Assembly (NCBI GenBank): GCA_964521625.1
Contig: CAZFSM010000003.1
Location: 143,801-207,800, forward strand
Reading direction: 5' to 3'
DNA from: an uncultured Veillonellaceae bacterium
GTDB taxonomy: Bacteria > Bacillota > Negativicutes > UBA1444
DNA: 64,000 nucleotides
Below the pieces are notes generated by a model. It searched no databases. It was not told the DNA's origin and saw only the letters and a program-made list of their open reading frames with translations. Below are positions 14,336 through 55,108 of the stretch, in pieces; the stretch's first letter is position 1, and each line of letters starts with the position of its first letter. Made by a program: the position numbers and the translations under genes.

Positions 14336-14345
14336 AGGAGCCCCC

Positions 14346-15218: not shown

Positions 15219-15308
15219 GATCTCCCTCCTGTCGACTAGGCAAAAAGAATACGGAAGGGGCCGGTTGCGCCAAACGCGCCCGGCGCCTTCCGCGCATGAA
15301 TCTGGATT

Positions 15309-27671: not shown

Positions 27672-27687
27672 TGGCACGATTATTGCA
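27672..27687 (+). promoter_or_regulatory. sigma-54 (RpoN) -24/-12 promoter TGGCACGATTATTGCA
   Basis: Perfect match to the TGGCACG-N4-TTGCW consensus, 83 nt upstream of the MCP-like gene at 27770, in a 450-bp AT-rich intergenic region. Confidence 0.6.
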
Positions 27688-27769: not shown

Positions 27770-28615
27770 ATGTCCACTGAAGACAATGCGGTGTTGGAAA
27801 AATTTCTGCATGTGATGCCTCTATTGGGTGCTATGTTCTCGGCCGACATCGGTGTTGCCGTCACTGATCGGGAAAAATATCTGCTATACAAACCCGGGCG
27901 GCAATTGGACCTGAAGATCAGCGCCGGCACCCCACTTAAGGCCGGCACGGCCATCGTTCGCGCCATGAATGAAAATCGCCGCGTATCCGTTCGGGGAGAC
28001 AAAGCTACGTTTGGTTTACCGTACATTGCCACCGCAGTGCCAATTCAGGATAGCAATGGATCGGTCGTCGGCGGCGCCGTCATCATTGAATCGGTCGACC
28101 AGCAGGACAAGCTGACAGAAATGGCGGTCAAACTGGCTGACAGCACCAACACCCTCGCCAGCACCTCGCAGGAAATTTCTGCCCAGACTGAAGAAATCAG
28201 TGCGGTAAGTCGCGCTATGTCATTAGCTGCCAGTCAATCGCAAAACCGCCTGCAAGAAACCGATCAGGTGGTCGGATTGATCAAAGCCATCGCCGGTCAG
28301 ACCAATATGCTTGGCTTAAACGCCGCGATCGAAGCGGCCCGCGTCGGCGAGCAGGGGCGGGGTTTTGGCGTTGTTGCCGAAGAAATCCGCAAATTGGCCG
28401 CCTCGACGGGAGATTCCATCAAGCAAATTGAAGCGACCCTGCGGACGATTCGTGATGACAGCCGGAAGAACTACGAGCAGGCTTGCCGAATCGATGAAGT
28501 CATGCCGCAAATCGCGCAAGCGATCACGCAAGTGGCCGGCACAGTGCAGGAAGTTAATGAGATGGCCCGCAATCTGAATCAAATGGCCGCCGATCTGACT
28601 AAAAACCAGGCTTAA
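27770..28615 (+). CDS. soluble chemoreceptor-like protein: PAS-like N-terminal sensor + methyl-accepting chemotaxis (MCP) signalling domain (paralog 1)
   Basis: Highly conserved MCP core [34 protein letters not shown]. No TM segments. AGGGAGGAG RBS. Confidence 0.8.
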
Positions 28616-39644: not shown

Positions 39645-40826
39645 TTACGGTTTAACAGTGGTCTTATAGACCATTTTGCCGTCTTTCATCTCGATGATTA
39701 CCGCACTCTTTACAGCGTCGTGGTTCTCGTTGAGGGTGGTGGCGCCGGTAACCGCCGGGAAATCTTTGGTGGCGACGAGAGCGGCAGTGATTTTCGCAGA
39801 ATCGGCTGCGCCGGCCCGTTTGATTGCGTCGACCAGGACGTAGGCGGCATCATAGCCGAGAACTGCCATCGCGTCAGGCATTACACCATATTCTTTTTTG
39901 TAGGCATCAACGAATTTTTTCGAGGCCGGGCTGGAATCTTCCGGTGAGTAGTGATTGGTGAAGTAGGTGTTGTTCATGCCGGCAGCGCTGCCGATTTCAA
40001 CCAGTTTGGGCGAATCCCAGCCGTCGCCGCCGACGATCGGCATCATTAGGCCAATTTCACGGGCTTGTTTGGCAATCATGCCGACTTCTTCATAGTAACC
40101 AGGCAAGTAGATGACTTCCGGGCTCATGCCTTTGATCTTGGTCAGGATGGCTTTGAAGTCTTTGTCTTTTTGCAGATATGCTTCTTCGCCGGCAATCGTG
40201 CCGCCGCCTTTGGTATAAGCTTCCTTGAAGAATTTGGCCAGGCCTTTGCTGTAGTCGCTGGAGTTGTCAATCATGACAACCGCTTTTTTCAGTTTCAGGT
40301 CTTTCAGCACGAAATTCGCGCCAACCGTACCTTGGAACGGATCGATGAAACAGACGCGGAAGGTGTAGGGTTTGGCTTTGCCGGTTTTTTCATCAACCGT
40401 AACTTTGGGGTTGGTTGTCGCTGCAGCGACGAAAGGAATCTTGCTGGCTTCGTTAACTGCCGAACCGGCAATGCCGTTGGAGCTGGTGGTGAAACCGACT
40501 ACGGCAACCACTTTGTCCTGGGTGATGACTTTGGTCATCGCATTGGCTGATTCGGAAGGTTCGCCTTTGTTGTCAGCCGTCACGGTGGTGATTTGTTTGC
40601 CGAGCACGCCGCCGGCTGCATTGATTTCTTTGAAGGCCAGTTTGGTTCCGTTATTGGCGGCGGTGCCGAATGAAGCGGTGCCACCGGTCAATTCATAGAC
40701 AACACCGATTTTGATATCCTTGGATTCTGCCGGTTTCGCCGCAGGCGCTCCGCCACCGCAACCGGTCACCGCGAACGCAACAAGAACCAATAAGGCCAAG
40801 GCAAACTTCAGACTACTTTTTTTCAC
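39645..40826 (-). CDS. orphan ABC substrate-binding lipoprotein, Leu/Ile/Val-binding protein family
   Basis: GTG start (VKKSSLKF) with AAGGAGGG RBS. Lipobox VTGCGGG. Confidence 0.7.
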   Translation of the reverse strand: MKKSSLKFALALLVLVAFAVTGCGGGAPAAKPAESKDIKIGVVYELTGGTASFGTAANNGTKLAFKEINAAGGVLGKQITTVTADNKGEPSESANAMTKVITQDKVVAVVGFTTSSNGIAGSAVNEASKIPFVAAATTNPKVTVDEKTGKAKPYTFRVCFIDPFQGTVGANFVLKDLKLKKAVVMIDNSSDYSKGLAKFFKEAYTKGGGTIAGEEAYLQKDKDFKAILTKIKGMSPEVIYLPGYYEEVGMIAKQAREIGLMMPIVGGDGWDSPKLVEIGSAAGMNNTYFTNHYSPEDSSPASKKFVDAYKKEYGVMPDAMAVLGYDAAYVLVDAIKRAGAADSAKITAALVATKDFPAVTGATTLNENHDAVKSAVIIEMKDGKMVYKTTVKP

Positions 40827-40966
40827 AAAAACACCCTCCTTAAATATTATCAACTACAATTTTAATTGTCTGATCCCCTATACTCTGGTTAAGGCCCCCC
40901 TTCACCGTTGGTTGTTGCTGTGTTTGACGAAAACTGCAATTTTGATCCATAATTGAAAAAAGAAGC

Positions 40967-41026
40967 TTTGGGCAAAATACCCGCTGGATATTTTACCAAA
41001 AGCTTCTTTGCTTTTGCTATAATCAC
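40967..41026 (-). terminator. long hairpin terminator after rocA-like gene
   Basis: AAGAAGCTTTGG...CCAAAAGCTTCTT with nested AAAATA/TATTTT, followed by a T-run on the minus strand. Confidence 0.45.
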
Positions 41027-41110: not shown

Positions 41111-42658
41111 TTACATTTTTTCTGCAACAACCTTCGCTTGCATGAATAATAGTAAATAATCGGCGCCACCAGCCTTGGAATCGGTACCCGACATATTGAA
41201 GCCGCCGAAGGGTTGCACGCCGACCAACGCACCGGTGCATTTGCGATTGAGATACAGGTTGCCGACATGGAAATCGCGGCGGGCCTGTTCCAATTTGGCC
41301 CGGTTGCGGGAGTAAACCGCCCCGGTCAGGCCGTACTCGGTGTCGTTGGCGATACGCAGCGCATCGGCAAAATCTTCGGCCTGGGTAATCGCCACCACTG
41401 GGCCAAAAATTTCTTCCTGGGCAATCCGTGATTTCGCCGGTGCGTCGGCAAACACAGTCGGCTCGATGAACCAGCCTTTTTCGCCTGCCGTATTGCCGCC
41501 GGCAACCAATCTGGCTTCGCTTTTACCGATTTCAATATAGTCGAGGATTTTTTTGTAGGCGCTTTCATCAACCACCGGACCCATGTTGACGCCGTATTTG
41601 GCGGCTGGCCCCACGGTCAGCGCTTTGGTTTTCGCCGCCACTTTGGCCACAACTTCATCATAAACACTCTTGACTATAATCGCCCGTGAACAGGCCGAGC
41701 ATTTCTGGCCCTGGAAACCAAACGCCGAGGCGACAATGCCGTTGGCCGCTTCTTCCAAATCGGCTTCCTCATCGACCACGATTGCATCCTTGCCGCCCAT
41801 TTCCGCCACAACCCGCTTGATCCAGATCTGGCCTGGCGCAACATCAGCCGCCAACTTATTGATACGCAGACCGACTTCCTTGGAGCCGGTGAAGTTGATG
41901 AACCGTACCTGCGGGTGCGATACCAGCACATCGCCGATGCTGCCGCCGCTGCCGGGCAGATAGTTGATCACACCGGCCGGCGCACCAGCCGCTTCGAACA
42001 GTTCCATCAATTTAGCCGCAATCACCGGTGTGCTGCTGGCTGGTTTCATGATGACCGTATTGCCTGCCACCACCGCAGCGGCAACCATGCCGGCCAGAAT
42101 CGCCAGCGGGAAATTCCAGGGCGGAATGACGACACCGACGCCGAGCGGGATATAGAAGCACTCGTTCTGTTCGCCGGGCACGGCGATGACAGGCATGCCC
42201 GCCGCATAGCGGAGCATTTCCCGTCCATAGTATTCCATGAAATCGATCGCCTCGGCCGTATCGGCATCGGCTTCGGCCCAGTTCTTGCCGGCTTCCTCGA
42301 CCAGCCAGGCCGAGTATTCGAATTTACGCCGACGCAGAATCGCCGCCGCCTTGAACAGCAGGCGGGCCCGCACTTCCGGCGCTACATGTTTCCAGCTGGA
42401 AAAAGCTTCTTGCGCTGCTTTGACGGCCTGGTCAGCCAGTTCAGCATTGGCCCGGGCCACAGTGCCGATGACTTCCGAGAAGCAGGAGGGGTTCACCGAG
42501 GTGATGCGGGCTTCGGTGTCAATCGCTTTGCCAGCAATCTTCAGCGGATAGTGGCGGCCTTTTTCGGACGCAACCAGTTGCAGCGCCGCCTCCATGGCCG
42601 CTTTGTTCTCGGGGATGCTAAAATTCGTGAACGGTTCGGGTTGATACGCTGTCTGCAT
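41111..42658 (-). CDS. rocA: 1-pyrroline-5-carboxylate (L-glutamate gamma-semialdehyde) dehydrogenase, RocA-type
   Basis: N-terminus [14 protein letters not shown]...KGRHYPL closely resembles B. subtilis RocA. ALDH family. Confidence 0.85.
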
Positions 42659-42689
42659 AATATAAGCCCTCCTCAATATTTCATCTTAA

Positions 42690-43847
42690 CTATACTACCG
42701 ATGGTTCGATAAACAGGTCGCCGCGGGCAAACCGGCCGGCGTCCAGTAATTCAACCGGCAAAGCGGTTTTCAGGCCCAGCAGCTGTTCGGCGACGATCTG
42801 GCCGGTAATCGGCGCGATCATGAAGCCATGGCCGCTGAAGCCTGCCGCCACATGAAAGCCTTCCACGTCACCGGCCGGCCCGAGGATCGGCTGGCGATCC
42901 GGCGACATATCGTACAACCCGGCCCATTGCCGCACTACATTGAGTCCGGCCAGCGGCGGCAGGATCTTGACGATCCGGCGGGCCATCTCACCGAGGAACT
43001 GCCAACTGGACTCGGTGTTGAAGCTCTCCGGTTCATCGGGGTGGCCGATACCCATGATAAAACTGCCATGCGGACTTTGCTGGCAATACAGGTTGTGGTG
43101 GAAACTCATCACCATCGAGTCCTGCATCGGTTCGACCGGTTCGGTCACGAGTATTTCATGCCGCTCGGGATAAATCGGCAGTTCGACGCCAACCATCCGG
43201 CCCAGCTGTTTGGAATAACCACCAGCCGCCACGACTACCCGTGGGGTACTGATAGTACCCCACCGGGTCTTGACCCCGGTGATCCGGCAACATTCCGCCT
43301 CGATTCCGGTCACTTCGTTATCGGTGCGGATCTCCACGCCATGGCGCTGCGCCGCTTTCGCATAGGCGGCCGTCGCCTTGAACGGGTTGCAGTGGCCGTC
43401 TTTGGCGCAGAAGGTCGCGCCGAGCAGCCCGGCCGTGTTCAGATGCGGCACGATCTCTTTCGCTTCGTCCGGCGTCACCCAACGGGACGGAATCCCCAGC
43501 GAATTTTGCAATAGCAGGTTTTTTTTGAACTGGGCCGCCATCTTTTCCGTATAGGCCAGCAACAGATAGCCGCCCTGTTTCAGTTCGATATCGACATCGA
43601 CGTCCAGCAGCTGCGGCAGCTGTTCCAGCATCCGGGTGCTTTCCCGCGACAGCAGGCAATTGGTTTCGGTTCCCCACTGCATCCGCATGCCGGCGCCGCA
43701 GCGTCCGGTGGCCCCACTGGCCAGGTAGCCGCGTTCCAAAAGCACCACTTTGCCTGCGCCGAGCCGGGCCAGGTTATAGGCAGTAGCGCAGCCGACGATT
43801 CCGCCGCCGATTACCACTACATCCGCTGTATCATTCATCCGCGCCAC
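42690..43847 (-). CDS. FAD-dependent oxidoreductase (sarcosine oxidase beta / archaeal-type L-proline dehydrogenase beta subunit-like)
   Basis: VVVIGGGIVGCATAY dinucleotide fold; DAO-family length. Confidence 0.8.
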   Translation of the reverse strand: MARMNDTADVVVIGGGIVGCATAYNLARLGAGKVVLLERGYLASGATGRCGAGMRMQWGTETNCLLSRESTRMLEQLPQLLDVDVDIELKQGGYLLLAYTEKMAAQFKKNLLLQNSLGIPSRWVTPDEAKEIVPHLNTAGLLGATFCAKDGHCNPFKATAAYAKAAQRHGVEIRTDNEVTGIEAECCRITGVKTRWGTISTPRVVVAAGGYSKQLGRMVGVELPIYPERHEILVTEPVEPMQDSMVMSFHHNLYCQQSPHGSFIMGIGHPDEPESFNTESSWQFLGEMARRIVKILPPLAGLNVVRQWAGLYDMSPDRQPILGPAGDVEGFHVAAGFSGHGFMIAPITGQIVAEQLLGLKTALPVELLDAGRFARGDLFIEPSVV

Positions 43848-44118
43848 CTCCGGAGAGCGCCCCCAGGCTGATGGTCGCCACCGGTTGGCGAAACGTCGGC
43901 AGCGCGATTTCAGCCAGCGGTTTGCCTGTGGTTTTGGCCAGTTCCTGCGCCACCAGCGGCATACAAGTCCGGCCCTGGCATGGCCCCATGCCGCAACGGC
44001 AACTGCGTTTGACCTCTTCGGTGCTCAGGTTTCCCTCGCCAATACTCTGGCGAATTTCCGACAATGTTATATCCTCACACCGGCAAATGATGATCTCTTC
44101 GCCGAGATTCTCGCTCAT
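43831..44118 (-). CDS. BFD-like [2Fe-2S]-binding small protein
   Basis: CRCEDIT...CRCGMGPCQGRTC Cys pattern; 95 aa. Confidence 0.6.
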   Translation of the reverse strand: MSENLGEEIIICRCEDITLSEIRQSIGEGNLSTEEVKRSCRCGMGPCQGRTCMPLVAQELAKTTGKPLAEIALPTFRQPVATISLGALSGGGADE

Positions 44119-44609
44119 AGCGCCACTTCCTTTCGCCGCCGGATATTCCGCACATCCATCGCAACCGTTTTATCCACCGCCAGCCACAGCACCGTCGTCC
44201 GGTTGGCCTGCTGCTGCACCCGTTGCACAGTCGCCGCACCAACCGATTTTCCCGCCCGGTCGATCGCCTCGACGACTTCGCCGCTGGCCGGCAACGGGGC
44301 GAATTCATACGGTATTTTTAGCAATGCTGCCTCAGGCGACCAGTCATAGTCGATGACAAAAATCGCCAGGCCTGGGCACCGCGTGACACAGAGTCCGCAG
44401 CCGTTGCATTTTGCTTCGTCAAACACCGGCCGCTCGCTAATGCTTCCCGGCATTGTGATCGCGCCGCGCGGACAGGCTTCGGCGCAGGGATTGCAGGGAA
44501 TCTGCTGAAAACACTCGACAACTGCCACCGGCCCTTGTTTCAGCCGTTCATCCGCCGGCAACACGGCCCGCAAATCTTCGGTCGTTGGAATTCCGTCCAC
44601 TGCCAGCAT
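44115..44609 (-). CDS. 2x[4Fe-4S] ferredoxin-domain protein (PDH1 gamma-like)
   Basis: CNPCAEACP and CNGCGLCVTRCP motifs. Probable start MLAVDG, ATGA-coupled. Confidence 0.6.
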   Translation of the reverse strand: MLAVDGIPTTEDLRAVLPADERLKQGPVAVVECFQQIPCNPCAEACPRGAITMPGSISERPVFDEAKCNGCGLCVTRCPGLAIFVIDYDWSPEAALLKIPYEFAPLPASGEVVEAIDRAGKSVGAATVQRVQQQANRTTVLWLAVDKTVAMDVRNIRRRKEVAL

Positions 44610-44610
44610 C

Positions 44611-45699
44611 TTACCCCACCTCTCCCAGCATGACTTTGCACAGGCCATTGCAGACTTTGGCGCTGACCGGAGCGCTGCGCAGCGCATTCAACTGTGACTT
44701 CGCCTCGTGATAGAGGGCGGCAAAGTTTTCGCTCTGGTAACGCAGGGCAAAGGCCGCTGCCAGTCCCGCCAGTTTCCCTTCGACCATCGCCGCCGATGCC
44801 TCTTCGACGCCGGCCACATCGCCCGCCACATAGATATTGTGATGGGTCGTCAATAAATCGGCATTACGCCAGGGAACATAGCCGCCGAGTTCCGGCACGA
44901 ACTCCATCTTGCAACCGGCCTGCCAGAGCAGCTCGGTCAATGGGCAGAGGCCGACAGCCAGGCACAACCCGTCCACGGCGAAGTCCCCTTCCGTACCGGG
45001 GATCTGCGCCCATTTTTCGTCCAGCTGGCAGACGGTAACGCCGCCCAGCCGGTCAGTGCCATAGGCGCGTTTGATCGTGTGGCCGGTATAGATCGGCACG
45101 CCGCAGCGCTGGATTTTCGATGCATGGACCCAGTAGGCGCCGATTTTGGGCGCCGCCTCGATGATCGCCGCCACTTCGACTCCCGCCTGCAGTAGTTGGT
45201 AGGCGACAATCACGCCGATATTGCCAGCGCCGACCATTAGCACCCGCTCGGCTGGCTTGACACCGTAAACATTCATCAGGGTCTGCACCGCGCCGGCCCC
45301 GTAAATGCCGGGCAGGTCGTTGTTGGGAAACGCCAGCGTCTTTTCCGATGCACCGGTCGCCACAATCAACTTCTTCGGTTTCACCAGACAAAACGAGTCG
45401 CCCTGTTTAACCGACAGCACCCCGTCAGGGTAATAGCCTAGGGCGGTGGCGTTCTTCCATACGGTGACATTGGACAGCGGCGCCAATTGATCCATCAGTT
45501 TATGGGCGATTTCGAAGCCCCGTTCGCCGGCGTATTCTTCGCGCGAACCAAAAAATTTATGCGTCTGTTTGATCAGCTGGCCGCCCAGTTCAGTCCCCCG
45601 TTCCAGCAGCAACACCTGCGCCCCCATTTCGGCCGCCTGGATCGCCGCCATCAGGCCAGCCGGACCAGCACCGATTATGGCGATATCTGTATGCCTCAT
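44611..45699 (-). CDS. FAD/NAD(P)-binding pyridine-nucleotide-disulfide oxidoreductase family protein (PDH1 alpha / HcnB-like)
   Basis: IAIIGAGPAG and VLMVGAGNIG dinucleotide motifs. Confidence 0.8.
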   Translation of the reverse strand: MRHTDIAIIGAGPAGLMAAIQAAEMGAQVLLLERGTELGGQLIKQTHKFFGSREEYAGERGFEIAHKLMDQLAPLSNVTVWKNATALGYYPDGVLSVKQGDSFCLVKPKKLIVATGASEKTLAFPNNDLPGIYGAGAVQTLMNVYGVKPAERVLMVGAGNIGVIVAYQLLQAGVEVAAIIEAAPKIGAYWVHASKIQRCGVPIYTGHTIKRAYGTDRLGGVTVCQLDEKWAQIPGTEGDFAVDGLCLAVGLCPLTELLWQAGCKMEFVPELGGYVPWRNADLLTTHHNIYVAGDVAGVEEASAAMVEGKLAGLAAAFALRYQSENFAALYHEAKSQLNALRSAPVSAKVCNGLCKVMLGEVG

Positions 45700-46001
45700 A
45701 CCAGCTTTCCCTTCCCTTCCTGGGTTTCCACCTGCATGCCGGCGCGCAGGGGTTCGACGCAGACCCGGACATTGGGCACGCCGTCCACTGTCATCAGACA
45801 GGAAGAGCAGTTGCCAATCGCGCAGAACAAACCGCGCGGACGATGAAACCGACTACTGTGACGCAGCGAACGGACTCCCGCCGCATGCAGCGCCGCCGCA
45901 ATCGGTTCGCCAGCCAGTCCTTCCACCGCTTTCCCATCAAAAATAAACTGTACTGTTTCCCGTACAGGAAACTCCAGAATCGGATGATTCTCGACACGCA
46001 C
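45696..46001 (-). CDS. [2Fe-2S] ferredoxin-like small subunit (HcnA / sarcosine oxidase alpha N-terminal domain-like)
   Basis: CAIGNCSSC...C Cys pattern. GTG start with GGAGGTG RBS. Confidence 0.65.
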   Translation of the reverse strand: MRVENHPILEFPVRETVQFIFDGKAVEGLAGEPIAAALHAAGVRSLRHSSRFHRPRGLFCAIGNCSSCLMTVDGVPNVRVCVEPLRAGMQVETQEGKGKLV

Positions 46002-46026
46002 TGATCAGTCACCTCCGTTTGACCCT

Positions 46027-46043
46027 TGATTATGAAAAGGTAT
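46027..46043 (-). promoter_or_regulatory. sigma-54 -24/-12 promoter (minus strand reads TGGCACGGTTCGTGCAA)
   Basis: GG and GC with correct 10-bp spacing. One mismatch to TTGCW. Located 26 nt upstream of the first gene of the oxidoreductase operon. Confidence 0.55.
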
Positions 46044-46055
46044 ATATTGCACGAA

Positions 46056-46105
46056 CCGTGCCAACCGGATAAAAAAATCGGCAATGCCCTATAGCACAGC
46101 CGATT
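46056..46105. promoter_or_regulatory. inverted repeat AATCGGC-N16-GCCGATT plus direct CCGATTG repeat; candidate regulator site
   Basis: Seen in sequence immediately upstream of the sigma-54 promoter. Close spacing is atypical for an enhancer. Confidence 0.25.
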
Positions 46106-46174
46106 GCGAGATTTCACCCGATTGGTTTTGTTGTTTAGGAATACCCCCCTGCCTCAAAAGCCCCGGCAAAACTG

Positions 46175-47674
46175 TCAGTTTTTCGTCATTTTTGTCGATT
46201 CTCCGACAGTCAATTGCAAACTTTTCATTTTATAATACAGCGTACTGCGAGGAATCCCCAGTTTTTTTGCGGCCAACACCTTATTGAAATTGACTTCCGC
46301 CAATACCCGGACAATCAGGTCCCTTTCGACAGCCTCGGTCGTGTCAGTGAGCGTCTGCCCTGCCACTGGTCGTCGTTGCACGTCGCCGTGCAGTGCGGCG
46401 GCGGATTCCGCGGCGAGATTGGCCGGCAGATTGGCCAGTGTCATTATTTCGCCGTCACATAGGATCACCATGCGTTCCAGTGCATTATACAGTTCGCGCA
46501 CATTACCCGGCCACTCATAGTCGAGCAAGGCCGCCATCACCGCCGGTTCCAGCCGGCGGATCTGCTTGCCGTGCAACTGGCTGAAATGTTGAATTCCCCG
46601 GTGAACCAGCTCCGGAATGTCATCGCGACGTTCCCGCAGCGACGGCAAGGGAATCGTTACCACATTCAAACGGTAATACAAGTCTTCGCGGAACTCCCCC
46701 CGCGCGATCATCGTCTCCAGGTCGCGGTGCGTTGCCGCAATCACCCGGATATCGACGTGGACCGGTTTGCCACCGACCCGGTTAAACCGTTGTTCCTGCA
46801 GGACCCGCAGCAGTTTCACCTGCATTTCTTTCGGCATCTCGCCGATTTCATCGAGAAACAACGTGCCTGTATGCGCCTGTTCCAGATAGCCGGATTTCCC
46901 TTTTTTGTCGGCCCCGGTGAACGAACCCGCCTCGTAGCCAAACAGTTCGCTTTCGAACAAATTGACCGGAATGGCGCCACAATTAATCGCCACGAACTGT
47001 CCCGGCCTATGGCTGGCCTGATGGATGGCGCGCGCAAACAACTCTTTGCCGCTGCCGCTCTCGCCACGCAGCATGACCGAAACATTGGCGGCAGCAACGC
47101 GACGGGCCACACGAACCGCTTCCATTACCAACGGACTATGCCCGTAAATCGGCGAGAATTCGTCCGCCGTGGCCTGCATCTTGTCAATTTCCTGGCGCAA
47201 ACTCCGCACCTCATTGCCGGCTTCCGACAGTTGCTGGTTCAGGTTGACCACTTCGGTGATGTCCCGCTCGGCGGAAACGCCGCCGACAATCTTGCCGTCC
47301 AGACGTACCGGCTGGGCATTGATCAAGACATGAGTGCCGGGGCAGGGTTTATGATACGCTTCGCGAACTAGCAGTCCGTCGTGCATCGCCTGCGTAACCA
47401 TCAGGTTGGAAAAAAACTTGCCAATCGGCTGCCCGATAATTTCAGCCTCTGCAATCCCGTATAACAGTTCGGCTCTGCGATTCCAGCCGACCACCCGATT
47501 TTCGGCATCAATCACACAGACGGCTTCCTCCAGCACATCGAGTAGCTCGTTCCAGCGAGCCGCCTGCAGCAAATTCTCCAGCAGCAGCTCCTGAAAAAGC
47601 TGTTTCAATTCCTCAGGCGAACTGGTTTCTATTCTATCCTGCAACAATTCCCCGGCCTGCTTCCCCATCCTCAA
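46175..47674 (-). CDS. sigma-54-dependent transcriptional activator with N-terminal PAS domain (RocR-like)
   Basis: GESGSGKE Walker A. GAFTGA-like ESELFGYEAGSFTGA. C-terminal Fis HTH. 499 aa. Confidence 0.85.
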   Translation of the reverse strand: MRMGKQAGELLQDRIETSSPEELKQLFQELLLENLLQAARWNELLDVLEEAVCVIDAENRVVGWNRRAELLYGIAEAEIIGQPIGKFFSNLMVTQAMHDGLLVREAYHKPCPGTHVLINAQPVRLDGKIVGGVSAERDITEVVNLNQQLSEAGNEVRSLRQEIDKMQATADEFSPIYGHSPLVMEAVRVARRVAAANVSVMLRGESGSGKELFARAIHQASHRPGQFVAINCGAIPVNLFESELFGYEAGSFTGADKKGKSGYLEQAHTGTLFLDEIGEMPKEMQVKLLRVLQEQRFNRVGGKPVHVDIRVIAATHRDLETMIARGEFREDLYYRLNVVTIPLPSLRERRDDIPELVHRGIQHFSQLHGKQIRRLEPAVMAALLDYEWPGNVRELYNALERMVILCDGEIMTLANLPANLAAESAAALHGDVQRRPVAGQTLTDTTEAVERDLIVRVLAEVNFNKVLAAKKLGIPRSTLYYKMKSLQLTVGESTKMTKN

Positions 47675-47949
47675 CCGCCTCCGTTATCCCCTGCTCATAA
47701 TAAAAAAAGCTACCGAACCCCTAATAGGAGTGTCGAGCAGCTCTGCTCTGTCAGTGACGAAAAACTGACACTATTATTTAGTATTATACGTGGCGGATGA
47801 TCAATTGGCAAGTCGAGCGTCGCTTACTTAATAATAGCCATCATCACCGGATCTACCTTGATCATGACCGCAACGGAACGAATGAAGGGTTTACACTGCT
47901 AACAGAGAATTAGTTAAGAATCGAATCCGAGAAAAGAGGAGTCCTATTT

Positions 47950-48675
47950 GTGAAAAAGTTGCTAACCGTGATGATCATGTTTTGTTTGGTAGGAATGGGC
48001 GTAGGACAAGCAGCAGTTCCAGCCAAAGACTACAATGAAACCGCCAGCCAAGTTCTTAAAAGCGCTGTTACAAGCGATGACGCAGAGCAAGTAAAACAGT
48101 CCTTTGCTATGGGAGCCGACCCCAATTACTTACAAGGTCGCTCGGATGCACCATTCAACCGCGCAATAATGAAATCTAAATCCACGGCTATTGTTCAATG
48201 TTTTATTGATAATGGGGTTGATGTTAATTTCAAAGCAGTGGGTAACGGCAGCTATCCGTCCGCTCTGGCAACGGCAATGAGTGAACGGCGTTTGGATATG
48301 GTTGAAATGTTGCTTAATGCCGGGGCGGACCCCAATCTAAGCTTCGATAGCGAAGTTAACGAAGGCAGCTTTATTACTGATGTGCAAGAACAGACTATCG
48401 TTTTTTGGGCAGTACGATCAGATAAACCGATTGATTTAAATATTTTAAAATTATTAATCGAAAAAGGCGCCAACATAAATAAAGCAGATAGTTTGGGAAA
48501 TACGCCTTTAATGACTGCCTGTGAACTAGGCAAAATTGAAAGTGTCAAACTTTTATTGACAAACGGCGCAAATCCCAATCAAGCCAACAAAAAATCAAAA
48601 AAACCTTTGGATTTTGCAATAAAATCAGGCCATCTGGCGCTAATAAATCTATTAAGTCCCCTCACGAAAAATTAG
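47950..48675 (+). CDS. secreted ankyrin-repeat protein
   Basis: GTG start with GAGGAG RBS. Signal peptide MKKLLTVMIMFCLVGMGVGQA. Several repeats of the G-x-TPL/D-x-N-x-x-D ankyrin consensus. Gene visibly AT-rich relative to flanks. Confidence 0.75.
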   Translation: MKKLLTVMIMFCLVGMGVGQAAVPAKDYNETASQVLKSAVTSDDAEQVKQSFAMGADPNYLQGRSDAPFNRAIMKSKSTAIVQCFIDNGVDVNFKAVGNGSYPSALATAMSERRLDMVEMLLNAGADPNLSFDSEVNEGSFITDVQEQTIVFWAVRSDKPIDLNILKLLIEKGANINKADSLGNTPLMTACELGKIESVKLLLTNGANPNQANKKSKKPLDFAIKSGHLALINLLSPLTKN

Positions 48676-48861: not shown

Positions 48862-50121
48862 TCAGGGGAACACCCCGCGCAGTTTTTTCGCTTTGACGAC
48901 ACGGCCGAGGGCCAACATATAGGCTGCCATTCGGAAGGAAACTTTTTTCTGTTCATGTAGTTCCCATATCTCGGCAAATGCCTTGTTCATGATTTTTTCC
49001 AGATTGAGGTTTATGTACTCCTCATCCCACATGAACGACTCGTTATTCTGCACCCACTCAAAATAGGAAACAACCACGCCGCCCGCATTAGTAAGAATAT
49101 CAGGCAGAACGATCACGCCTTTTTGCTGGAGCACTTCATCGGCCTCATTGGTTGTCGGTCCGTTAGCGCCTTCGAGGATGATCCGGGCGCGGATCTTTTC
49201 AACATTATGCAAATTGATCTGGTTTTCCAGTGCCGCCAGGAACAGGACATCGACGTCAAGCGTCAACAGGTCGGCTTGGGGAATCACCTCGAGCCCCGGC
49301 TCCGAATAACCGAGCAGGGATTTTTTATTCTGCTCGGCATAAGCAATCGCCGCCGGCACATCAATGCCGTCTTTTTTGTATAGCGCGCAAAATGCATCGC
49401 CAATCGCCACGATCTTGAATCCTTTGTCATACATCAACTTGGCGCCAGTGCTACCGACATTACCAAAACCCTGGACAGCCAGTCGCGTATCCGCCGGGTT
49501 TTCGCCGCTTTTCTGCATGTAGTTCAACAAGGTGATCATCGCGCCGCGTCCGGTTGCCTCACGCCGACCCAGTGAACCGCCAATTTCAAGCGGCTTGCCG
49601 GTAACAACACCGGGAATGGCATACCCTTTCAACATGCTGAACGTATCCATGATCCAGGCCATCACCTGCGCGTCAGTGTTAACATCTGGCGCCGGAATAT
49701 CCTTGTCCGGTCCGATAATTGGCATAATCATCGTGGTATAGCGGCGGGTCATCTTGCGCAACTCTGATTCACTCAGTTTGCTCGGGTCGCAGGTAACGCC
49801 GCCTTTGGCTCCGCCATAAGGGATGCCCACCACGGCGCACTTCCAGGTCATCCAGGCCGCCAACGCCTTGACTTCATCCAGATTGGTGTCCGGGTGAAAA
49901 CGAATGCCGCCTTTGCACGGGCCACGCGTACTGCTGTGCTGCACCCGGTAACCCTGGAATACTTCCGTGTGGCCATCATCCATTACGACCGGCACGGAAA
50001 CCAATAGTTCCCGCTCAGGCGTCCGCAATGTGACATAATCGTTGTAGGTTAGTCCCAGATTTTTAGCTGCTTCGTCCAGTACGCCCAACATGCTTTCATA
50101 CGGATTGTAATTATGGGTCAT
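48862..50121 (-). CDS. gdhA: NAD(P)-dependent glutamate dehydrogenase
   Basis: GGxRFHP and GIPYGGAKGG motifs of Glu/Leu/Phe/Val dehydrogenases. Confidence 0.9.
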   Translation of the reverse strand: MTHNYNPYESMLGVLDEAAKNLGLTYNDYVTLRTPERELLVSVPVVMDDGHTEVFQGYRVQHSSTRGPCKGGIRFHPDTNLDEVKALAAWMTWKCAVVGIPYGGAKGGVTCDPSKLSESELRKMTRRYTTMIMPIIGPDKDIPAPDVNTDAQVMAWIMDTFSMLKGYAIPGVVTGKPLEIGGSLGRREATGRGAMITLLNYMQKSGENPADTRLAVQGFGNVGSTGAKLMYDKGFKIVAIGDAFCALYKKDGIDVPAAIAYAEQNKKSLLGYSEPGLEVIPQADLLTLDVDVLFLAALENQINLHNVEKIRARIILEGANGPTTNEADEVLQQKGVIVLPDILTNAGGVVVSYFEWVQNNESFMWDEEYINLNLEKIMNKAFAEIWELHEQKKVSFRMAAYMLALGRVVKAKKLRGVFP

Positions 50122-50261
50122 TTCTCCACTCCCTTTATTTTGGTTTCATTGAATGCATCACTGCAATTTTTTCCTACCTGTTTAATCAGATTATAACATT
50201 GTTGAACATTGTATACAAGATACAGTTGAGATAATTCTGTCATTGAAATAAAAATAATAAA

Positions 50262-50294
50262 AATCCCCAGAAAATTTCCTGGGGATTTTTATTA
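50262..50294. terminator. bidirectional hairpin (ATCCCCAG...CTGGGGAT) with flanking A/T runs
   Basis: Seen in sequence between pcp and gdhA. Confidence 0.6.
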
Positions 50295-50321
50295 CACTGT
50301 AAAATATTCTGAAGAAACTGT

Positions 50322-50969
50322 TTAGCAGATCGTCCCGCCGGTCTGTTTGATGTCGCTTTCCGCCGACACAGCTGCCGCCAATGCGACTTCCAGTCCTTTG
50401 ACAATCGTCTCCACCGCCATACTCGGCTGGCCGCCCAACCGGGCCGCCTGTTCCGGCAGGTAAGGAATGTGCACGAACCCGCCGCGGACCCCATTGCCGC
50501 GCTCGGCCAGGCAGTGCATCAGGCCATAGAACAAGTGATTACAGACGAACGTGCCCGCCGAGTTCGATACAGCAGCCGGAATGCCGGCCTGCTTCATCGC
50601 CGCCACCATCGCCTTGATCGGCAAACTGCTCCAATAAGCGACTGGCGCCCCGGAGACAATCGCTTCGTCAACCGGTTGGAACCCGCCATTGTCAGGAATC
50701 CGGAAATCGTCCATGTTGATCGCCACCCGCTCCGGCGTGATTTCCAGACGGCCGCCGGCCTGTCCCACTGCCAGCACCAACACGGGCTCGGTCTCGGCAA
50801 TGAATTTTTCAATTGCTTCAATCGAGGCAAACCGGGTCACCGGCAATTCTTTCGTAACAACCTTATAGCCGCCAACCTGACGTCCATCGAGCAATTTGAT
50901 CGCTTCCAGCGCCGGATTGACCGGCTCACCGCCAAACGGGCCAAACCCGGTGACTAAAATATTCCGCAT
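50322..50969 (-). CDS. pcp: pyroglutamyl-peptidase I (pyrrolidone-carboxylate peptidase)
   Basis: NILVTGFGPFGGEPVNP N-terminus and catalytic region typical of Pcp. Confidence 0.85.
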   Translation of the reverse strand: MRNILVTGFGPFGGEPVNPALEAIKLLDGRQVGGYKVVTKELPVTRFASIEAIEKFIAETEPVLVLAVGQAGGRLEITPERVAINMDDFRIPDNGGFQPVDEAIVSGAPVAYWSSLPIKAMVAAMKQAGIPAAVSNSAGTFVCNHLFYGLMHCLAERGNGVRGGFVHIPYLPEQAARLGGQPSMAVETIVKGLEVALAAAVSAESDIKQTGGTIC

Positions 50970-50992
50970 GGTCTTGCCTCCTTATTTCTTGT

Positions 50993-51925
50993 TTATTTGC
51001 CGGGAAAGGCCAGGAAATACATCAGCAGGATATTGATGATCAGCATGGGTACCGCCGTCATCACCTGCGCCCGGATTACCCCGTTCTTATCCTGCATTTC
51101 CAGCAGCGCCGCCGGCACCACGTTGAAATTGGCAGCCATCGGCGTCAGCAATGTCCCGCAGTAACCGGACAGCATGGCAATCACACCGGCAATTGCCGGA
51201 TCCGCGCCATGCATTTTGATGACCAGCGGAATGCCAATGCCGGTAGTAATGACCGCAAACGCGGCAAAGGCATTGCCCATGATCATCGTAAACAGTGCCA
51301 TGCCCACACAATAGGCCACTACGGTAGCGAAGCGGATATCAACCGGCACGACGGTGGACACCATATCAGCCACCACTTGCCCGACTCCCGCTTTGGCAAA
51401 CAGAAAACCGAGCGCCGCCAGAAACTGTGACAGAATGATTGCCCAGCCCACGGCGTCCAAAAGCCGCCGCCCTTCTTGAAATGCCTGCACCGGCATTATC
51501 CGGGTCAAAGCAAACGCCATAACCAGAGCGACGACCGAACCAATGCCCAGGCCTACCAAGGCCCCCATCTTCGGCGCCAGCCAGGCGACGAGGAACGTAA
51601 CCACGGGAACGGCCAGCGCCGGACCAAACAGCCACCAACCGATCCGGTCGGCCATCTGGCGACGGAAATCTGCCGCAGCACTCCAATATTCGCCCATCCC
51701 CATCCATTTCGCGCCGGCGATCGCCGCCATCACGACGACAAGCCCGCCGACCACCGCTGGGGGAATCTCTTTACCCCAAATAAACGTTATGCCGTAAAGA
51801 CCCCAGAACGTTGCGGTTCCCGCTTTGGTCAGACCTGATTGTTTTTTGTCCAGCACCGTCAATACAGTGAATGCCAACAGAAAAATGCCGGTAATGGCAT
51901 ATATTTGATCCAATGTAACCATCAT
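50993..51925 (-). CDS. DUF979-family membrane protein (Pcp-associated)
   Basis: Polytopic membrane protein, 310 aa. Conserved neighbourhood with pcp as I recall it. Confidence 0.55.
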   Translation of the reverse strand: MMVTLDQIYAITGIFLLAFTVLTVLDKKQSGLTKAGTATFWGLYGITFIWGKEIPPAVVGGLVVVMAAIAGAKWMGMGEYWSAAADFRRQMADRIGWWLFGPALAVPVVTFLVAWLAPKMGALVGLGIGSVVALVMAFALTRIMPVQAFQEGRRLLDAVGWAIILSQFLAALGFLFAKAGVGQVVADMVSTVVPVDIRFATVVAYCVGMALFTMIMGNAFAAFAVITTGIGIPLVIKMHGADPAIAGVIAMLSGYCGTLLTPMAANFNVVPAALLEMQDKNGVIRAQVMTAVPMLIINILLMYFLAFPGK

Positions 51926-52602
51926 TTCTGTTCACCTGCCTCATTTGAGCCTGCAGCGCGAATCGCACGGTCCATGAGCAGATAACGGACTCCGGCGACA
52001 ATAGCGGCTGCCACAGCTGTGGGAATCGCATATTCAGCCATTTTCATCAGGTCCACTTTATAGCCGGCATTCTCCAAAACACCTTTGATCAGCAGCAAGC
52101 CGCCGGCCGCCGGAAACAACAGCTGACCGAAGAAGTTACCGTAGTTTTCCGATGAAGCCGACATGCCGCGAATCCGCTCCAGCCAGGCTGCGCTTTTCGC
52201 GCCTTCCCGCGCTGCCGCCGCTTCAGTCATCGGCGCAATAATCGGACGGATAAAGCTGGGATGCCCGCCCAGCTGCAGTCCCAGTCCCACCGTGACCTGA
52301 CGGAAGATCTGATAAGCAATCATCACGCGTCCGGCAGTCAAGGTCTTCATGCTGCGAATTAAATCCTCAGCTTTTTCCCGCAAGCCGAACCGTTCCAAGA
52401 TGCCGATGACCGGCAACACCAGAATCAGCAGCGACATGTAGCGGTTGGTGACAAAGGCCTGGCCAATCGCCTCCAAAATCTGCACCGGTGACAGTCCTGC
52501 CACCAAGCCCGTGGCAAATCCCGCTGCCAGAACGACCAACAATGGATTGAACCTGAATAACAAACCGATGATAACGATGGCAACCCCAATGAGTTTAATC
52601 AA
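51922..52602 (-). CDS. DUF969-family membrane protein (Pcp-associated)
   Basis: 226-aa membrane protein overlapping the DUF979 gene start. Confidence 0.55.
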   Translation of the reverse strand: MIKLIGVAIVIIGLLFRFNPLLVVLAAGFATGLVAGLSPVQILEAIGQAFVTNRYMSLLILVLPVIGILERFGLREKAEDLIRSMKTLTAGRVMIAYQIFRQVTVGLGLQLGGHPSFIRPIIAPMTEAAAAREGAKSAAWLERIRGMSASSENYGNFFGQLLFPAAGGLLLIKGVLENAGYKVDLMKMAEYAIPTAVAAAIVAGVRYLLMDRAIRAAGSNEAGEQK

Positions 52603-52643
52603 GATTCCTGCCTCCTTTTACTTTTGTTTTATCTGTTTGACGG

Positions 52644-53336
52644 TTATTGCACCCGGTCGGTATAGCCAGCCAGCGCTTCCAGGTCATTGATGACAATCTT
52701 CTTGTTTTTCATACTGATCAAGTGTTCCGCCATGAATTTCTTCAATACGCGGGTTACGGTAATGCGCGAGCAGCCAACATTGTGCGCTAGCTCCCCCTGG
52801 GTGAACAAAGTCGAAATCATCCGGGGATCCTGGCCGGGTTCCAGCGTATCCGAGCAGGCCGACAAGCGAATCAAGGCATCGGCGATCCGGCCGGTAGCGT
52901 CATTAAAGGTGTTGTTGGTCAACTGCAACAGAATAATCCGGTACTTGCGGGTTATGCTGTTAATAATGCAAGGATACACCTGGGGATTTTTTTCAATCGC
53001 TGTTTGCAGCAATTCCCTGTTGATATAGGATACTTCGGCGTCTTCCTTGGCCCGGACCAAAAAATTTAGCCCGCCGCCGCAGAACAGATTCATTTCGCCA
53101 AATATTTCCCCTGGTCGCATCGTGTACAGCAATCTTTCCGAGCCCTGAAAACTGAGGATACTTTTGGCGACCTTGCCTCTGACAACGATGGCAAAGCTGG
53201 AACGGGCCAGTTCACAGTCAATCGTCTGTTTTTTCTTATACTGTCGGATCACGCCGCGCTCAGACAACTCATTCAGAAAGTAGTGCCGCATCGCAATCTG
53301 CTTTTTTTCATCAAAGACATCTTCGTACACGAGCAT
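52644..53336 (-). CDS. Crp/Fnr family transcriptional regulator
   Basis: cNMP-binding fold (GEIFGEM) plus C-terminal HTH (GCSRITVTRVLKKF). Confidence 0.8.
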   Translation of the reverse strand: MLVYEDVFDEKKQIAMRHYFLNELSERGVIRQYKKKQTIDCELARSSFAIVVRGKVAKSILSFQGSERLLYTMRPGEIFGEMNLFCGGGLNFLVRAKEDAEVSYINRELLQTAIEKNPQVYPCIINSITRKYRIILLQLTNNTFNDATGRIADALIRLSACSDTLEPGQDPRMISTLFTQGELAHNVGCSRITVTRVLKKFMAEHLISMKNKKIVINDLEALAGYTDRVQ

Positions 53337-53566
53337 CCCTCCTGTATTAGCTCGATTCGGGACCAGAGAGACGCATTCCTGCTTGCGTTGTGTGATTTAT
53401 TTGACTATTAATTCGTATTATAAGATAGCTACTACTTTAAAAATGTATCACCGACTACATAATGGCATTTCGGAGGATAAAAAAACGAAGGAAACGGCCG
53501 CTTTCTATAACCCAAAGCACTGCCGATCCCTTCGTATTGTCTGTAATGAATTGCTTCGCAGCTATC

Positions 53567-55108
53567 TCAGCCTTGCGCCTGCAGATCGCCGACGATGGCT
53601 TCCACCTGGTTCACGATTGTTTCACCGACCAACAATCGGTACACTGTCGCAATATCCTCGGCCGGAACCCGGTCTTCGTCCAGATGCGGCACTTCCGCCC
53701 GGACAGCCTGATGCGCGGCCCGCACGCCAACGCCCGGGTCCAGTGGTTTCAAGAAGTCGAGTCCCTGCGCTGCGACCAACATCTCAATCGCAATAACATG
53801 GCGGACGTTTTCGAGAATCTCGCGCGACTGCCTAGCCGCAATCGTGCCCATGCTGACATGGTCCTCCTGATTGGCCGAAGTAGGAATCGAGTCGACGCAG
53901 GCGGGGTGAGCCAGCACTTTGTTCTCTGAAACGAGAGCCGCCGCCGTGTATTGGGTGATCATCAGGCCGGAATCGACGCCGGGATAAGCCGTAAGAAACG
54001 GCGGCAAATCGCTGAGATGCGCATCCAGCATCCGGTTCACCCGCCGCTCGGAAATGCTGCCGATCTCCGCCAGCGCCGTCTTCAGATAATCCATCACGAG
54101 AGCCACCGGTTGTCCATGGAAATTGCCTCCAGAGATCACTTCGCCCGTGTCGGGGAAAATCAACGGATTATCGGTAGCCGAATTCATCTCGATCACAATC
54201 GTTTCCTGGGCCCGGCGCACTGCGTCTTTGGACGCGCCATGCACCTGCGGCACGCAGCGCAGTGAATAGGCATCCTGCACCTTGCCGCAATGCTCGTGCG
54301 ATTCCATGATCCGACTATCAGATGTTAATCTCAGCAGATTGCCGCTGGTCGCCAGCTGGCCCGGATGCGGCCGTATTCGGCTAATCCGCTCGTCATAGGC
54401 GGCGCGGGTTCCCCGCAACGCTTCCAGCGACATCGCAGCCGCGATGTCAGCCGCTTTCATCAGCAGCGCGGCATCGTGGACAACCAAAGCGCCAACTGCC
54501 GTCATGATCTGGGTGCCGTTAATCAGCGCCAACCCTTCTTTAGCGGCAAACGCCACCGGCGACAAGCCAACCGCCGCCAGTGCTGCGGCTCCTGTCACCA
54601 ATTTTCCGGCGACGAACGCCTTGCCTTCGCCCATCAGCACCAGGGCGATGTGTGATAACGGTGACAAATCACCGCTGGCGCCCACTGATCCCTTGCTGGG
54701 TACTGCCGGATACACACCCCGGTTGAGCAGTTCCAGCAACATATCGACCGTAGCCGGCCGGATGCCCGAATAGCCTTTAACCAGTGAATTGGCCCGCATC
54801 AGCATGGCAGTCCGTACCACATCCTCAGGCAGGCACTCGCCGACTCCCGCAGCATGACTCAAAATCAAGTTTCGCTGCAAAGCTTCGCGCTCTTCCGGCG
54901 AAATCCAGATTTGGCTGAGATTGCCGAAACCGGTGGAAATGCCGTAAACCGGTGTGGTGGAATCCAGTAACTTTTCGACGATGGCGCGACTGGCTGCCAA
55001 CTGTTGCCGCCCGGCCGCACTGATTTCAACTGTTTCCCGTTGTCTTGCCACCCGAACGACTTCAGAGAGAGTCAGCGAGTTTCCGTCAATACTTATCATT
55101 TCGCCCAT
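53567..55108 (-). CDS. hutH: histidine ammonia-lyase
   Basis: ASG (GSVGASGDL) MIO-forming motif; 513 aa; HAL family. Confidence 0.9.
   Translation of the reverse strand: MGEMISIDGNSLTLSEVVRVARQRETVEISAAGRQQLAASRAIVEKLLDSTTPVYGISTGFGNLSQIWISPEEREALQRNLILSHAAGVGECLPEDVVRTAMLMRANSLVKGYSGIRPATVDMLLELLNRGVYPAVPSKGSVGASGDLSPLSHIALVLMGEGKAFVAGKLVTGAAALAAVGLSPVAFAAKEGLALINGTQIMTAVGALVVHDAALLMKAADIAAAMSLEALRGTRAAYDERISRIRPHPGQLATSGNLLRLTSDSRIMESHEHCGKVQDAYSLRCVPQVHGASKDAVRRAQETIVIEMNSATDNPLIFPDTGEVISGGNFHGQPVALVMDYLKTALAEIGSISERRVNRMLDAHLSDLPPFLTAYPGVDSGLMITQYTAAALVSENKVLAHPACVDSIPTSANQEDHVSMGTIAARQSREILENVRHVIAIEMLVAAQGLDFLKPLDPGVGVRAAHQAVRAEVPHLDEDRVPAEDIATVYRLLVGETIVNQVEAIVGDLQAQG

Follow-up and report, generated by a model that had tools for sequence, protein, structure and literature searches.

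A 64,000-nucleotide stretch of DNA from an uncultured Veillonellaceae bacterium (contig CAZFSM010000003.1; hereafter the window, whose positions serve as coordinates throughout) carries on its minus strand an operon that we propose to encode a bacterial αβγδ-type L-proline dehydrogenase with a split α subunit, cotranscribed with a Δ1-pyrroline-5-carboxylate (P5C) dehydrogenase and expressed from a sigma-54 promoter that a PrdR-like activator controls. We put the probability of this reading at roughly three in four. The operon probably turns proline into glutamate via P5C, as suggested by the linkage of such dehydrogenase genes, across loci, to P5C dehydrogenases, prolidases and PrdR-like activators. 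The enzyme class is already known and has been biochemically characterised in Thermococcales; what appears to be new is a widespread bacterial form of five polypeptides, linked to P5C oxidation and controlled by sigma-54 and a PrdR-like activator. Also new is the bracketing of the PrdR-like activator gene by conserved TGTCA-N6-TGACA sites. An initial annotation of this DNA had described six co-directional, mostly translationally coupled genes, and their domains and coupling were borne out by the open reading frames (ORFs), by Pfam and NCBIfam profile searches of the window proteins and by the gene junctions. Its pathway, proline to P5C to glutamate, gained support from sequence and comparative genomics, with P5C dehydrogenases of two families in 24 of 82 loci.

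Subunits of the dehydrogenase and their archaeal counterparts

The five dehydrogenase proteins, namely a small [2Fe-2S] subunit, an α flavoprotein and subunits γ, δ and β (Table 1), aligned end to end and colinearly with a quartet of Thermococcales proteins at 36-53% identity (BLASTP, as for all pairwise values below). The archaeal references were Thermococcales paralogues found with the 1Y56_B sequence as query, in loci including those of P. horikoshii and T. guaymasensis, and these loci carry both enzyme types side by side, an α4β4 pair and an α-γ-δ-β quartet. The quartet combines an α of 478-479 amino acids (Fer2_4 + Pyr_redox_2), a γ di-cluster ferredoxin of 168 and a δ of 88-96 (BFD/A3) with its β. 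The small window subunit corresponded to residues 1-100 of the archaeal α (53%, 1e-35, T. guaymasensis and P. horikoshii) and the flavoprotein to residues 118-477 (51-53%, 1e-125 to 5e-130), compared with just 28% identity between the flavoprotein and the α of the α4β4 type. Identities to the archaeal counterparts were 41% for γ (2e-34), 51-53% for δ (1e-26 to 2e-32) and 36-43% for β (1e-75 to 3e-100), with 43% for the β of the T. guaymasensis αβγδ enzyme. The gene order 2Fe-2S/α, γ, δ, β is shared with archaeal loci L085 and L086.

Because the match to the quartet runs end to end and that to the α4β4 α reaches just 28%, the predicted complex is of the αβγδ type, with α divided into polypeptides of 101 and 362 amino acids and five subunits in all. 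The likeness to the Thermococcales αβγδ enzymes drawn in the initial annotation therefore holds in colinearity and order as well as identity, and its subunit set needs correcting only in number, to five, since the archaeal α is split here. The label 'PDH1-type' had to be abandoned: we take PDH1 to be the P. horikoshii enzyme of the α4β4 type (PDB 1Y56), whose α is the more distant of the two.

Among solved structures none is of the αβγδ type. The best PDB match of β was 1Y56_B, the β subunit of P. horikoshii L-proline dehydrogenase (3.8e-81, 276 bits), ahead of SoxB, the β chain of sarcosine oxidases (~1e-47, 166 bits), and δ aligned with residues 410-490 of PH1363. An exact-sequence look-up of β had no hit. 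Closer to home, β was 97% identical to a protein of the Sporomusaceae metagenome-assembled genome SM1-B11.1, which places the source bacterium in the Sporomusa family, and it shared 68-73% identity with its homologues from Pelosinus, Sporomusa, Anaerospora and Lucifera.

We then compared cofactor-binding residues. All 16 cysteine ligands of the Fe-S clusters were 99-100% conserved in 79-84 bacterial and archaeal sequences: C60, C65, C68 and C81 of the small subunit (invariant, 79 sequences), eight cysteines of γ (invariant, 81 sequences) and C12, C14, C47 and C52 of δ (at least 99%). Both nucleotide-binding motifs of α were likewise conserved, GxGPAG for flavin adenine dinucleotide (FAD) and GAGNIG...E/D181 of the type that binds nicotinamide adenine dinucleotide, NAD(H). 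Two further cysteines of α are also widely kept, C246 in 96% and C263 in 90% of 77 sequences, even though α lacks a redox-active disulfide motif of the classical kind.

The genes are tightly packed, with ATGA overlaps at the 2Fe-2S/α and γ/δ junctions, a spacer of 1 nucleotide between α and γ, an overlap of 8 nucleotides between δ and β, and a gap of 31 nucleotides between β and rocA. Start codons were placed at ATG 44609 for γ (longest ORF 190 amino acids) because its homologues have the resulting length of 164, and at ATG 43838 for β (ORF open from GTG 43847) because homologues are 382 amino acids long; the DAO-type gene of the initial annotation is thus present, and its 385 amino acids become 382. 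The rocA ORF begins at 42676, and its likely start is ATG 42658, which has its own GAGGAGG ribosome-binding site. The previously annotated span, 42690-47674, does contain the five dehydrogenase genes and the activator, but rocA, which had been listed with them, lies outside it at 42658-41111. It is nevertheless part of the transcription unit, lying between the sigma-54 promoter and a terminator of -27.7 kcal/mol, and its product scored above the cut-offs of two families, TIGR01237 (765 bits, equivalog cut-off 659.65) and NF002852 (838.9 bits, cut-off 648). Pfam found no TIM-barrel Pro_dh domain anywhere in the transcription unit, in agreement with the earlier statement that this is not a bacterial PutA.

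Recurrence of the complex and the identity of its substrate

A profile scan with a 12-sequence alignment of β, using one genome per species, returned at least 599 stretches encoding a β relative. We examined 82 loci, comprising the best 80 of these matches, one Pelosinus locus and one from Sporomusa sphaeroides. The best 80 of the at least 599 all came from anaerobic bacteria, mostly Firmicutes (including Negativicutes, Clostridia, Tissierellia, Peptococcaceae and Halanaerobiales), together with bins labelled Thermotogae, Calditrichales and Atribacterota. Two loci, L025 and L073, hold a typical Firmicute-like operon in bins labelled Caulobacteraceae and Betaproteobacteria, labels that probably reflect binning error and not real distribution. 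Synteny with related genomes was extensive: the DAO-type β was present in every locus and the five-gene core was complete in 75, the other 7 being cut by contig ends. In Pelosinus and Sporomusa sphaeroides the entire module of activator, five genes, rocA and a periplasmic binding protein is kept in surroundings that otherwise differ. Subunits are fused in some loci, γ with δ into one ORF in many (γ of 254-281 amino acids; L016, L018, L020, L022, L023, L026 and others) and α with γ in a few (α of 510-536; L051, L074), and the subunit boundaries of the complex are therefore fluid.

An aldehyde-oxidising enzyme adjoins the complex in 48 of the 82 loci. A RocA-type P5C dehydrogenase (TIGR01237) flanks the core in 12, the unrelated TIGR01236-type P5C dehydrogenase in another 12 (787 bits, cut-off 614), and a ferredoxin together with a protein resembling tungsten-type aldehyde:ferredoxin oxidoreductase (AOR) in 25. 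Such linkage to two P5C dehydrogenase families and to AOR is expected if the product of the complex is P5C or glutamate semialdehyde. Within Negativicutes, loci L012 and L013 have the TIGR01236-type enzyme at the position where L001, L003, L005-L011 and L014 have the RocA type; judged from these gene orders, one enzyme has displaced the other non-orthologously. Across the loci as a whole, P5C dehydrogenases of two non-homologous kinds appear to have been recruited independently beside the complex. The 25 AOR-type loci, from Clostridia and relatives, follow β not with a P5C dehydrogenase but with a poly-ferredoxin of ~130 amino acids and then the AOR-like protein of ~720. The AOR assignment is a partial NCBIfam match of 106 bits to the N-terminal third only; the arrangement suggests that glutamate semialdehyde could be oxidised there with ferredoxin as acceptor.

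Other recurring neighbours were an M24 Xaa-Pro-dipeptidase-like peptidase (9 loci), a sodium-dependent transporter (9 loci), M19 and PepD dipeptidases, and proC. In six Sedimentibacter-like loci (L050, L052, L062, L069, L075, L079) the complex is followed by the M24 Xaa-Pro-dipeptidase-like protein, an M19 dipeptidase, a signal-peptidase-like gene and PepD, with a PrdR-like activator of 700 amino acids sometimes inserted among the peptidase genes. This looks like a peptide-to-proline-to-P5C module.

Database names point to a different substrate. Source annotations call the β homologues 'sarcosine oxidase subunit beta', and the best NCBIfam families of the window subunits are soxA and soxB subfamilies, as if the complex dehydrogenated sarcosine or a different N-methyl amino acid and RocA oxidised some other aldehyde or merely adjoined it. 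Sporomusa uses N-methyl compounds. Use of sarcosine by B. thuringiensis requires a sigma-54/SoxR-dependent sox locus that encodes SoxA and SoxB along with two 2Fe-2S proteins (PMC4941409). However, the window proteins reached only 203 bits with soxB (cut-off 529) and, as three pieces, 50, 169 and 36 bits with soxA (cut-off 1164); the α pieces cover just positions 16-598 of the soxA model, so that its folate-binding C-terminal half has no counterpart, and neither that half nor SoxD or SoxG was found in the window or the neighbours surveyed. The histidine region of SoxB aligns with a conserved N/D-P-F motif that is common to the window β family and the archaeal proline dehydrogenase β. The B. 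thuringiensis locus, moreover, lacks a γ ferredoxin and includes hydroxyproline-type accessory genes, and with sarcosine as substrate two P5C dehydrogenase families and Xaa-Pro dipeptidases would make no sense as neighbours. We consider a sarcosine dehydrogenase very unlikely.

A related possibility is that the main substrate of this enzyme type is a different cyclic imino acid (D-proline, hydroxyproline or L-pipecolate, for example), in the manner of the bacterial D-hydroxyproline dehydrogenase LhpBEF or the opine dehydrogenases. Its separately encoded small 2Fe-2S protein resembles those of the three-subunit HcnABC, LhpBEF and OoxAB, and clostridial PrdR systems handle D-proline; the archaeal α4β4 enzyme also oxidises pipecolate (PMC4141209). 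Against this, γ and δ are a signature of the L-proline enzyme, to which they are 41-53% identical, and the linked aldehyde dehydrogenase is a P5C dehydrogenase equivalog that gave 375 bits with the model for ketoglutarate-semialdehyde dehydrogenase (KGSADH; cut-off 770). No proline racemase, hydroxyproline epimerase, Pyr4H2C deaminase or KGSADH occurs in the window or among the recurrent neighbours, and no epimerase, deaminase, KGSADH or opine-transport gene lies near the window operon. Plasmid-borne relatives of β were distant, the best 25 of 1422 records at 30-37% identity and all 1422 below 60%, with no Agrobacterium in the best 25. Another imino acid as main substrate is thus quite improbable in our estimation.

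RocA could instead mark an ornithine or arginine route, as in Bacillus where it is part of the arginine regulon, leaving the flavoprotein complex an unrelated redox role, for example as an NADH:ferredoxin-type oxidoreductase; the α of T. profundus does have NADH dehydrogenase activity of its own. The transcription unit contains no arginase, ornithine aminotransferase or ornithine cyclodeaminase, the DAO-type β is always present, and translation of the five window genes is coupled, all of which makes this explanation extremely improbable.

Sigma-54 promoter, activator and binding sites

The near-consensus sigma-54 promoter of the initial annotation was confirmed and is conserved in orthologous loci. 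It departs once from the consensus TGGCAC-N5-TTGCW and has GG and GC elements at the correct spacing; two matches to TGGCAC-N5-KTGCW were found in the 64 kb, the operon promoter among them, against 0.13 expected. Pelosinus (TGGCACGGTTATTGCA) and Sporomusa (TGGCACGATACTTGCA) have the -24/-12 element in the equivalent position. Across the 82 loci a sigma-54 promoter lies within 200 nucleotides of the first gene in 31, and elsewhere, in some, before an upstream transporter gene. The operon is absent from the list of a published survey of Clostridiales sigma-54 regulons.

The adjoining regulator is, as previously annotated, a PAS/sigma-54 activator, but it is RocR-like in domain layout only. Its best NCBIfam family was PrdR (NF041552), at 547.7 bits against a cut-off of 795 and over model positions 134-575 of 577. 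PrdR was also the best family of all operon-side activators in Sporomusa, Desulfovirgula, Peptococcaceae, Tissierellia, Acidaminobacter, Sedimentibacter and Alkaliphilus, the last scoring 793 bits, just under the same cut-off.

In the window and in each of 10 orthologous loci from Negativicutes, the activator gene has one or two copies of TGTCA-N6-TGACA at its extreme 3' end, with starts ~20 bp apart where there are two, and a further copy lies 41-150 nucleotides upstream of the activator start in the same 11 loci. Over 11 loci the motif occurred at 4.4 per kb in the 350 nucleotides 5' of the promoter compared with 0.09 per kb elsewhere. In the window the tandem copies overlap the last codons and the stop codon of the activator gene, 110-145 bp 5' of the sigma-54 promoter, and are presumed to form its upstream activating sequence. 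The copy between the sigma-70-like promoter and the activator start codon, a 22-bp palindrome, is likely to be an autoregulatory site, as its placement suggests. These sites fall in the TGT-N10-ACA motif class reported for PrdR and related activators (PMC6615313), and the layout recalls that of B. thuringiensis SoxR, which activates sigma-54 promoters and represses its own (PMC4941409). A hairpin and T-run equivalent to the terminator of the activator gene is found in Pelosinus.

Two other sigma-54-like elements were considered. A perfect promoter-type match, TGGCACGATTATTGCA, lies at 27672-27687 on the plus strand, ~85 nucleotides 5' of a gene (27770-28615) for a protein of 281 amino acids with an MCP-signalling domain, and no activator gene was recognised beside it. 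The sequence TGGATCAAAATTGCA before the binding-protein gene was rejected because its spacing is one base short.

Proposed pathway, genomic surroundings and known systems

Taken together, the homology to characterised archaeal enzymes and the genome context suggest the following model for a proline-oxidising operon. The activator would be made from its own sigma-70-type promoter, which it probably represses through the palindrome, given the conserved placement of that site. In the presence of proline, which we infer the activator senses because of its relationship to PrdR, it would occupy the two sites where its own gene ends, opening the sigma-54 promoter ~125 bp downstream. The FAD-containing β would oxidise L-proline to P5C, and electrons would cross four Fe-S clusters (the [2Fe-2S] of δ, the 2x[4Fe-4S] of γ and the [2Fe-2S] of the small subunit) to the α flavoprotein with its NAD(H)-type motif. 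P5C would open spontaneously to glutamate semialdehyde, which RocA, from its equivalog-level family membership, is predicted to oxidise to glutamate with NAD+. Overall, a strict anaerobe would in this way convert proline to glutamate without PutA.

Several points weigh against this reading. The 36-43% identity in β would leave room for a shifted substrate. RocA is also used in ornithine and arginine catabolism, and sarcosine and betaine support growth of Sporomusa species. The regulator, while PrdR-like, is not a PrdR equivalog, scoring under the cut-off and lacking the first ~130 model residues, and rpoN is not in the 64-kb window. With the P5C/proline couple near -0.12 V, well above that of NAD+/NADH, NAD+ on its own is an unfavourable acceptor, and the electron-transfer end of the model is weak. 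The B. thuringiensis locus of the wider family, under sigma-54/SoxR control, is genetically required for growth on sarcosine (PMC4941409). Finally, a literature search of incomplete coverage found no characterised bacterial member, as the initial annotation had presumed.

The archaeal enzymes are described only as 'dye-linked' (titles cited in PMC8704557). One way round the energetic difficulty would be for the complex to be more than such a dehydrogenase and to work by flavin-based electron confurcation, with proline + Fd(red) + 2 NAD+ -> P5C + Fd(ox) + 2 NADH, where Fd is ferredoxin. While conceivable because of the cofactor load, the NAD(H) site of α and the ferredoxin/AOR neighbours in other species, we regard it as unlikely. 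If true, it would explain why a two-electron oxidation in strict anaerobes involves two flavoproteins and four Fe-S clusters, why α retains its NAD(H) site and why ferredoxin and a ferredoxin-reducing aldehyde oxidoreductase are the next genes in 25 other loci, and it would settle the physiological acceptor of the archaeal enzymes.

If the proposed function is correct, many strictly anaerobic bacteria oxidise proline not by PutA/PRODH but by a kind of Fe-S flavoprotein complex hitherto described in hyperthermophilic archaea alone. The 'sarcosine oxidase' annotation on many β homologues would be corrected, and the PrdR family of proline-responsive sigma-54 activators would extend from reductive (Stickland) to oxidative proline use. 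Pelosinus and Sporomusa, as mesophiles amenable to genetics, would be suitable hosts for identifying the electron acceptor that these enzymes use physiologically.

Downstream of the operon, a gene for a LivJ-type binding protein forms a separate transcript with its own terminator at 39623-39580. It occupies the same position in Pelosinus and Sporomusa and is a conserved neighbour in Sporomusaceae; homologues (clustering threshold at least 28% identity) lie near the core on the same strand in 8 loci and occur in 10 loci overall. Rfam gave no RNA element in the window, including the gap between rocA and this gene, and a hairpin in that gap, considered as an RNA element, was rejected for want of a meaningful match and is simply a terminator. 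A run of five ORFs at 11984-16496 on the minus strand includes, at 15309-16496, a Peripla_BP_6 binding protein 30% identical to the operon-side orphan; judged from that one annotated ORF, the run may be a branched-chain-type ABC transporter cluster, and it might supply permease and ATPase for the orphan.

Glutamate dehydrogenase, said in the initial annotation to follow the operon, is in fact encoded upstream of the activator (50121-48862), and as a part of the module it was rejected: it is not conserved beside the operon in relatives, and the 3 other loci that have it nearby show low identity and a large distance from the core. It belongs to a minus-strand run of glutamate-family catabolic genes at 48862-55108 that also encodes pyroglutamyl peptidase, DUF979 and DUF969 membrane proteins, a Crp-family regulator and an aromatic-amino-acid (histidine-type) ammonia lyase. 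Between activator and glutamate dehydrogenase, 47950-48675 on the plus strand encodes an ankyrin-repeat protein of 241 amino acids with an N-terminal signal-like sequence, unusual for a bacterium. The G+C content of 42001-46000, within the operon, is 59-60%, whereas most of the window lies at ~50-54%; a like value (60%) recurs only at 32001-34000.

Table 1. Features of the operon and its neighbours (window positions, except the last row, which gives positions in other loci; aa, amino acids; nt, nucleotides)
Feature	Position	Strand	Basis
LivJ-type periplasmic amino-acid-binding protein gene (Peripla_BP_6), separate transcript	39645..40853	-	Pfam, NCBIfam
Operon terminator, strong hairpin then T6, -27.7 kcal/mol	40956..41009	-	folding energy
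rocA, L-glutamate gamma-semialdehyde (P5C) dehydrogenase, 515 aa	41111..42658	-	NCBIfam
β subunit, DAO-family FAD dehydrogenase, 382 aa, presumed proline-oxidising	42690..43838	-	homology
δ subunit, BFD-like [2Fe-2S] / SO_alpha_A3 (sarcosine-oxidase A3) domain, 95 aa	43831..44118	-	Pfam
γ subunit, 2x[4Fe-4S] ferredoxin-like, 164 aa	44115..44609	-	Pfam
α flavoprotein, Pyr_redox_2, 362 aa, two dinucleotide-binding motifs	44611..45699	-	Pfam
Small [2Fe-2S] subunit, Fer2_4, 101 aa	45696..46001	-	Pfam
Sigma-54 (-24/-12) promoter TGGCACGGTTCGTGCA, TGGCAC-GGTTC-GTGCA, 47 nt 5' of first start codon	46048..46063	-	consensus scan
Activator-gene terminator, hairpin then T7, -16.5 kcal/mol, directly 5' of sigma-54 promoter	46071..46105	-	folding energy
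Tandem 16-bp predicted activator sites TGTCGGAGAATCGACA and TGACGAAAAACTGACA, starts 20 bp apart	46193-46208, 46173-46188	-	motif search
Activator, PAS + Sigma54_activat + HTH_8, 499 aa	46175..47674	-	Pfam
22-bp palindrome TGTCAGTTTTTCGTCACTGACA between sigma-70-like promoter and activator start codon	47749..47770	-	palindrome/motif search
Sigma-70-like promoter of activator gene, TTGCCA-17-TATAAT, 11/12 matches	47783..47811	-	consensus scan, pattern match only
Glutamate dehydrogenase gene, upstream of activator, beyond opposite-strand ankyrin gene	48862..50121	-	
AOR-type loci	L028:11179-13777; also L015, L020, L022, L026, L036, L038, L048, L049, L054, L057, L060, L061, L064, L082, others		

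The proposed system shares features with several known ones. With PutA or PRODH plus P5C dehydrogenase it would share the chemistry from proline through P5C to glutamate and a RocA/PutC-type P5C dehydrogenase, but its first step would be carried out by an unrelated DAO-fold Fe-S flavoprotein complex. It differs from heterotetrameric SoxABDG in having no SoxA of ~1000 amino acids, no SoxD or SoxG and a soxB score below cut-off, and from LhpBEF, opine dehydrogenase and HcnABC in gene content, by its γ ferredoxin and separate δ. The clostridial D-proline reductase activator PrdR is the best family of the window activator and shares its TGT-N10-ACA motif class; the window protein scores under the cut-off, lacks the N-terminal ~130 residues and would target an oxidative instead of a reductive proline pathway.

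The B. thuringiensis sox locus, also from a Firmicute, resembles the window operon as modelled here in its PAS-type activator that binds an inverted repeat, its sigma-54 promoter and autoregulation, and in pairing a DAO-type β with a Pyr_redox flavoprotein and 2Fe-2S proteins made separately (PMC4428206, PMC4941409). Unlike the window, it encodes SoxB, SoxC, SoxD and SoxA without a 2x[4Fe-4S] γ, is laid out as two divergent operons, adjoins proline-racemase-like, DapA-like and generic aldehyde dehydrogenase genes instead of a P5C dehydrogenase gene, and is tied by genetics to sarcosine. The α4β4 L-proline dehydrogenase PH1363/PH1364 (1Y56) provides the best solved-structure match for β, and δ corresponds to the C-terminal domain of PH1363; that enzyme, however, has two subunits, with an α of ~490 amino acids that includes the A3 domain, and neither a γ ferredoxin nor a separate δ.

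The Thermococcales αβγδ L-proline dehydrogenases (T. profundus PdhA/F/X/B and the second P. horikoshii complex) are the systems that the window operon matches in gene order and in the domains of each subunit. The window differs in that α is made as two polypeptides (five in total), in its mesophilic bacterial host, in a P5C dehydrogenase absent from both archaeal loci examined, and in its sigma-54 promoter and PrdR-like activator; to our knowledge, archaea have no such regulatory system. The order in T. profundus is pdhA-pdhF-pdhX-pdhB (PMC4364671), and all 16 cysteine ligands, as well as both nucleotide-binding motifs of α, are common to the two forms.

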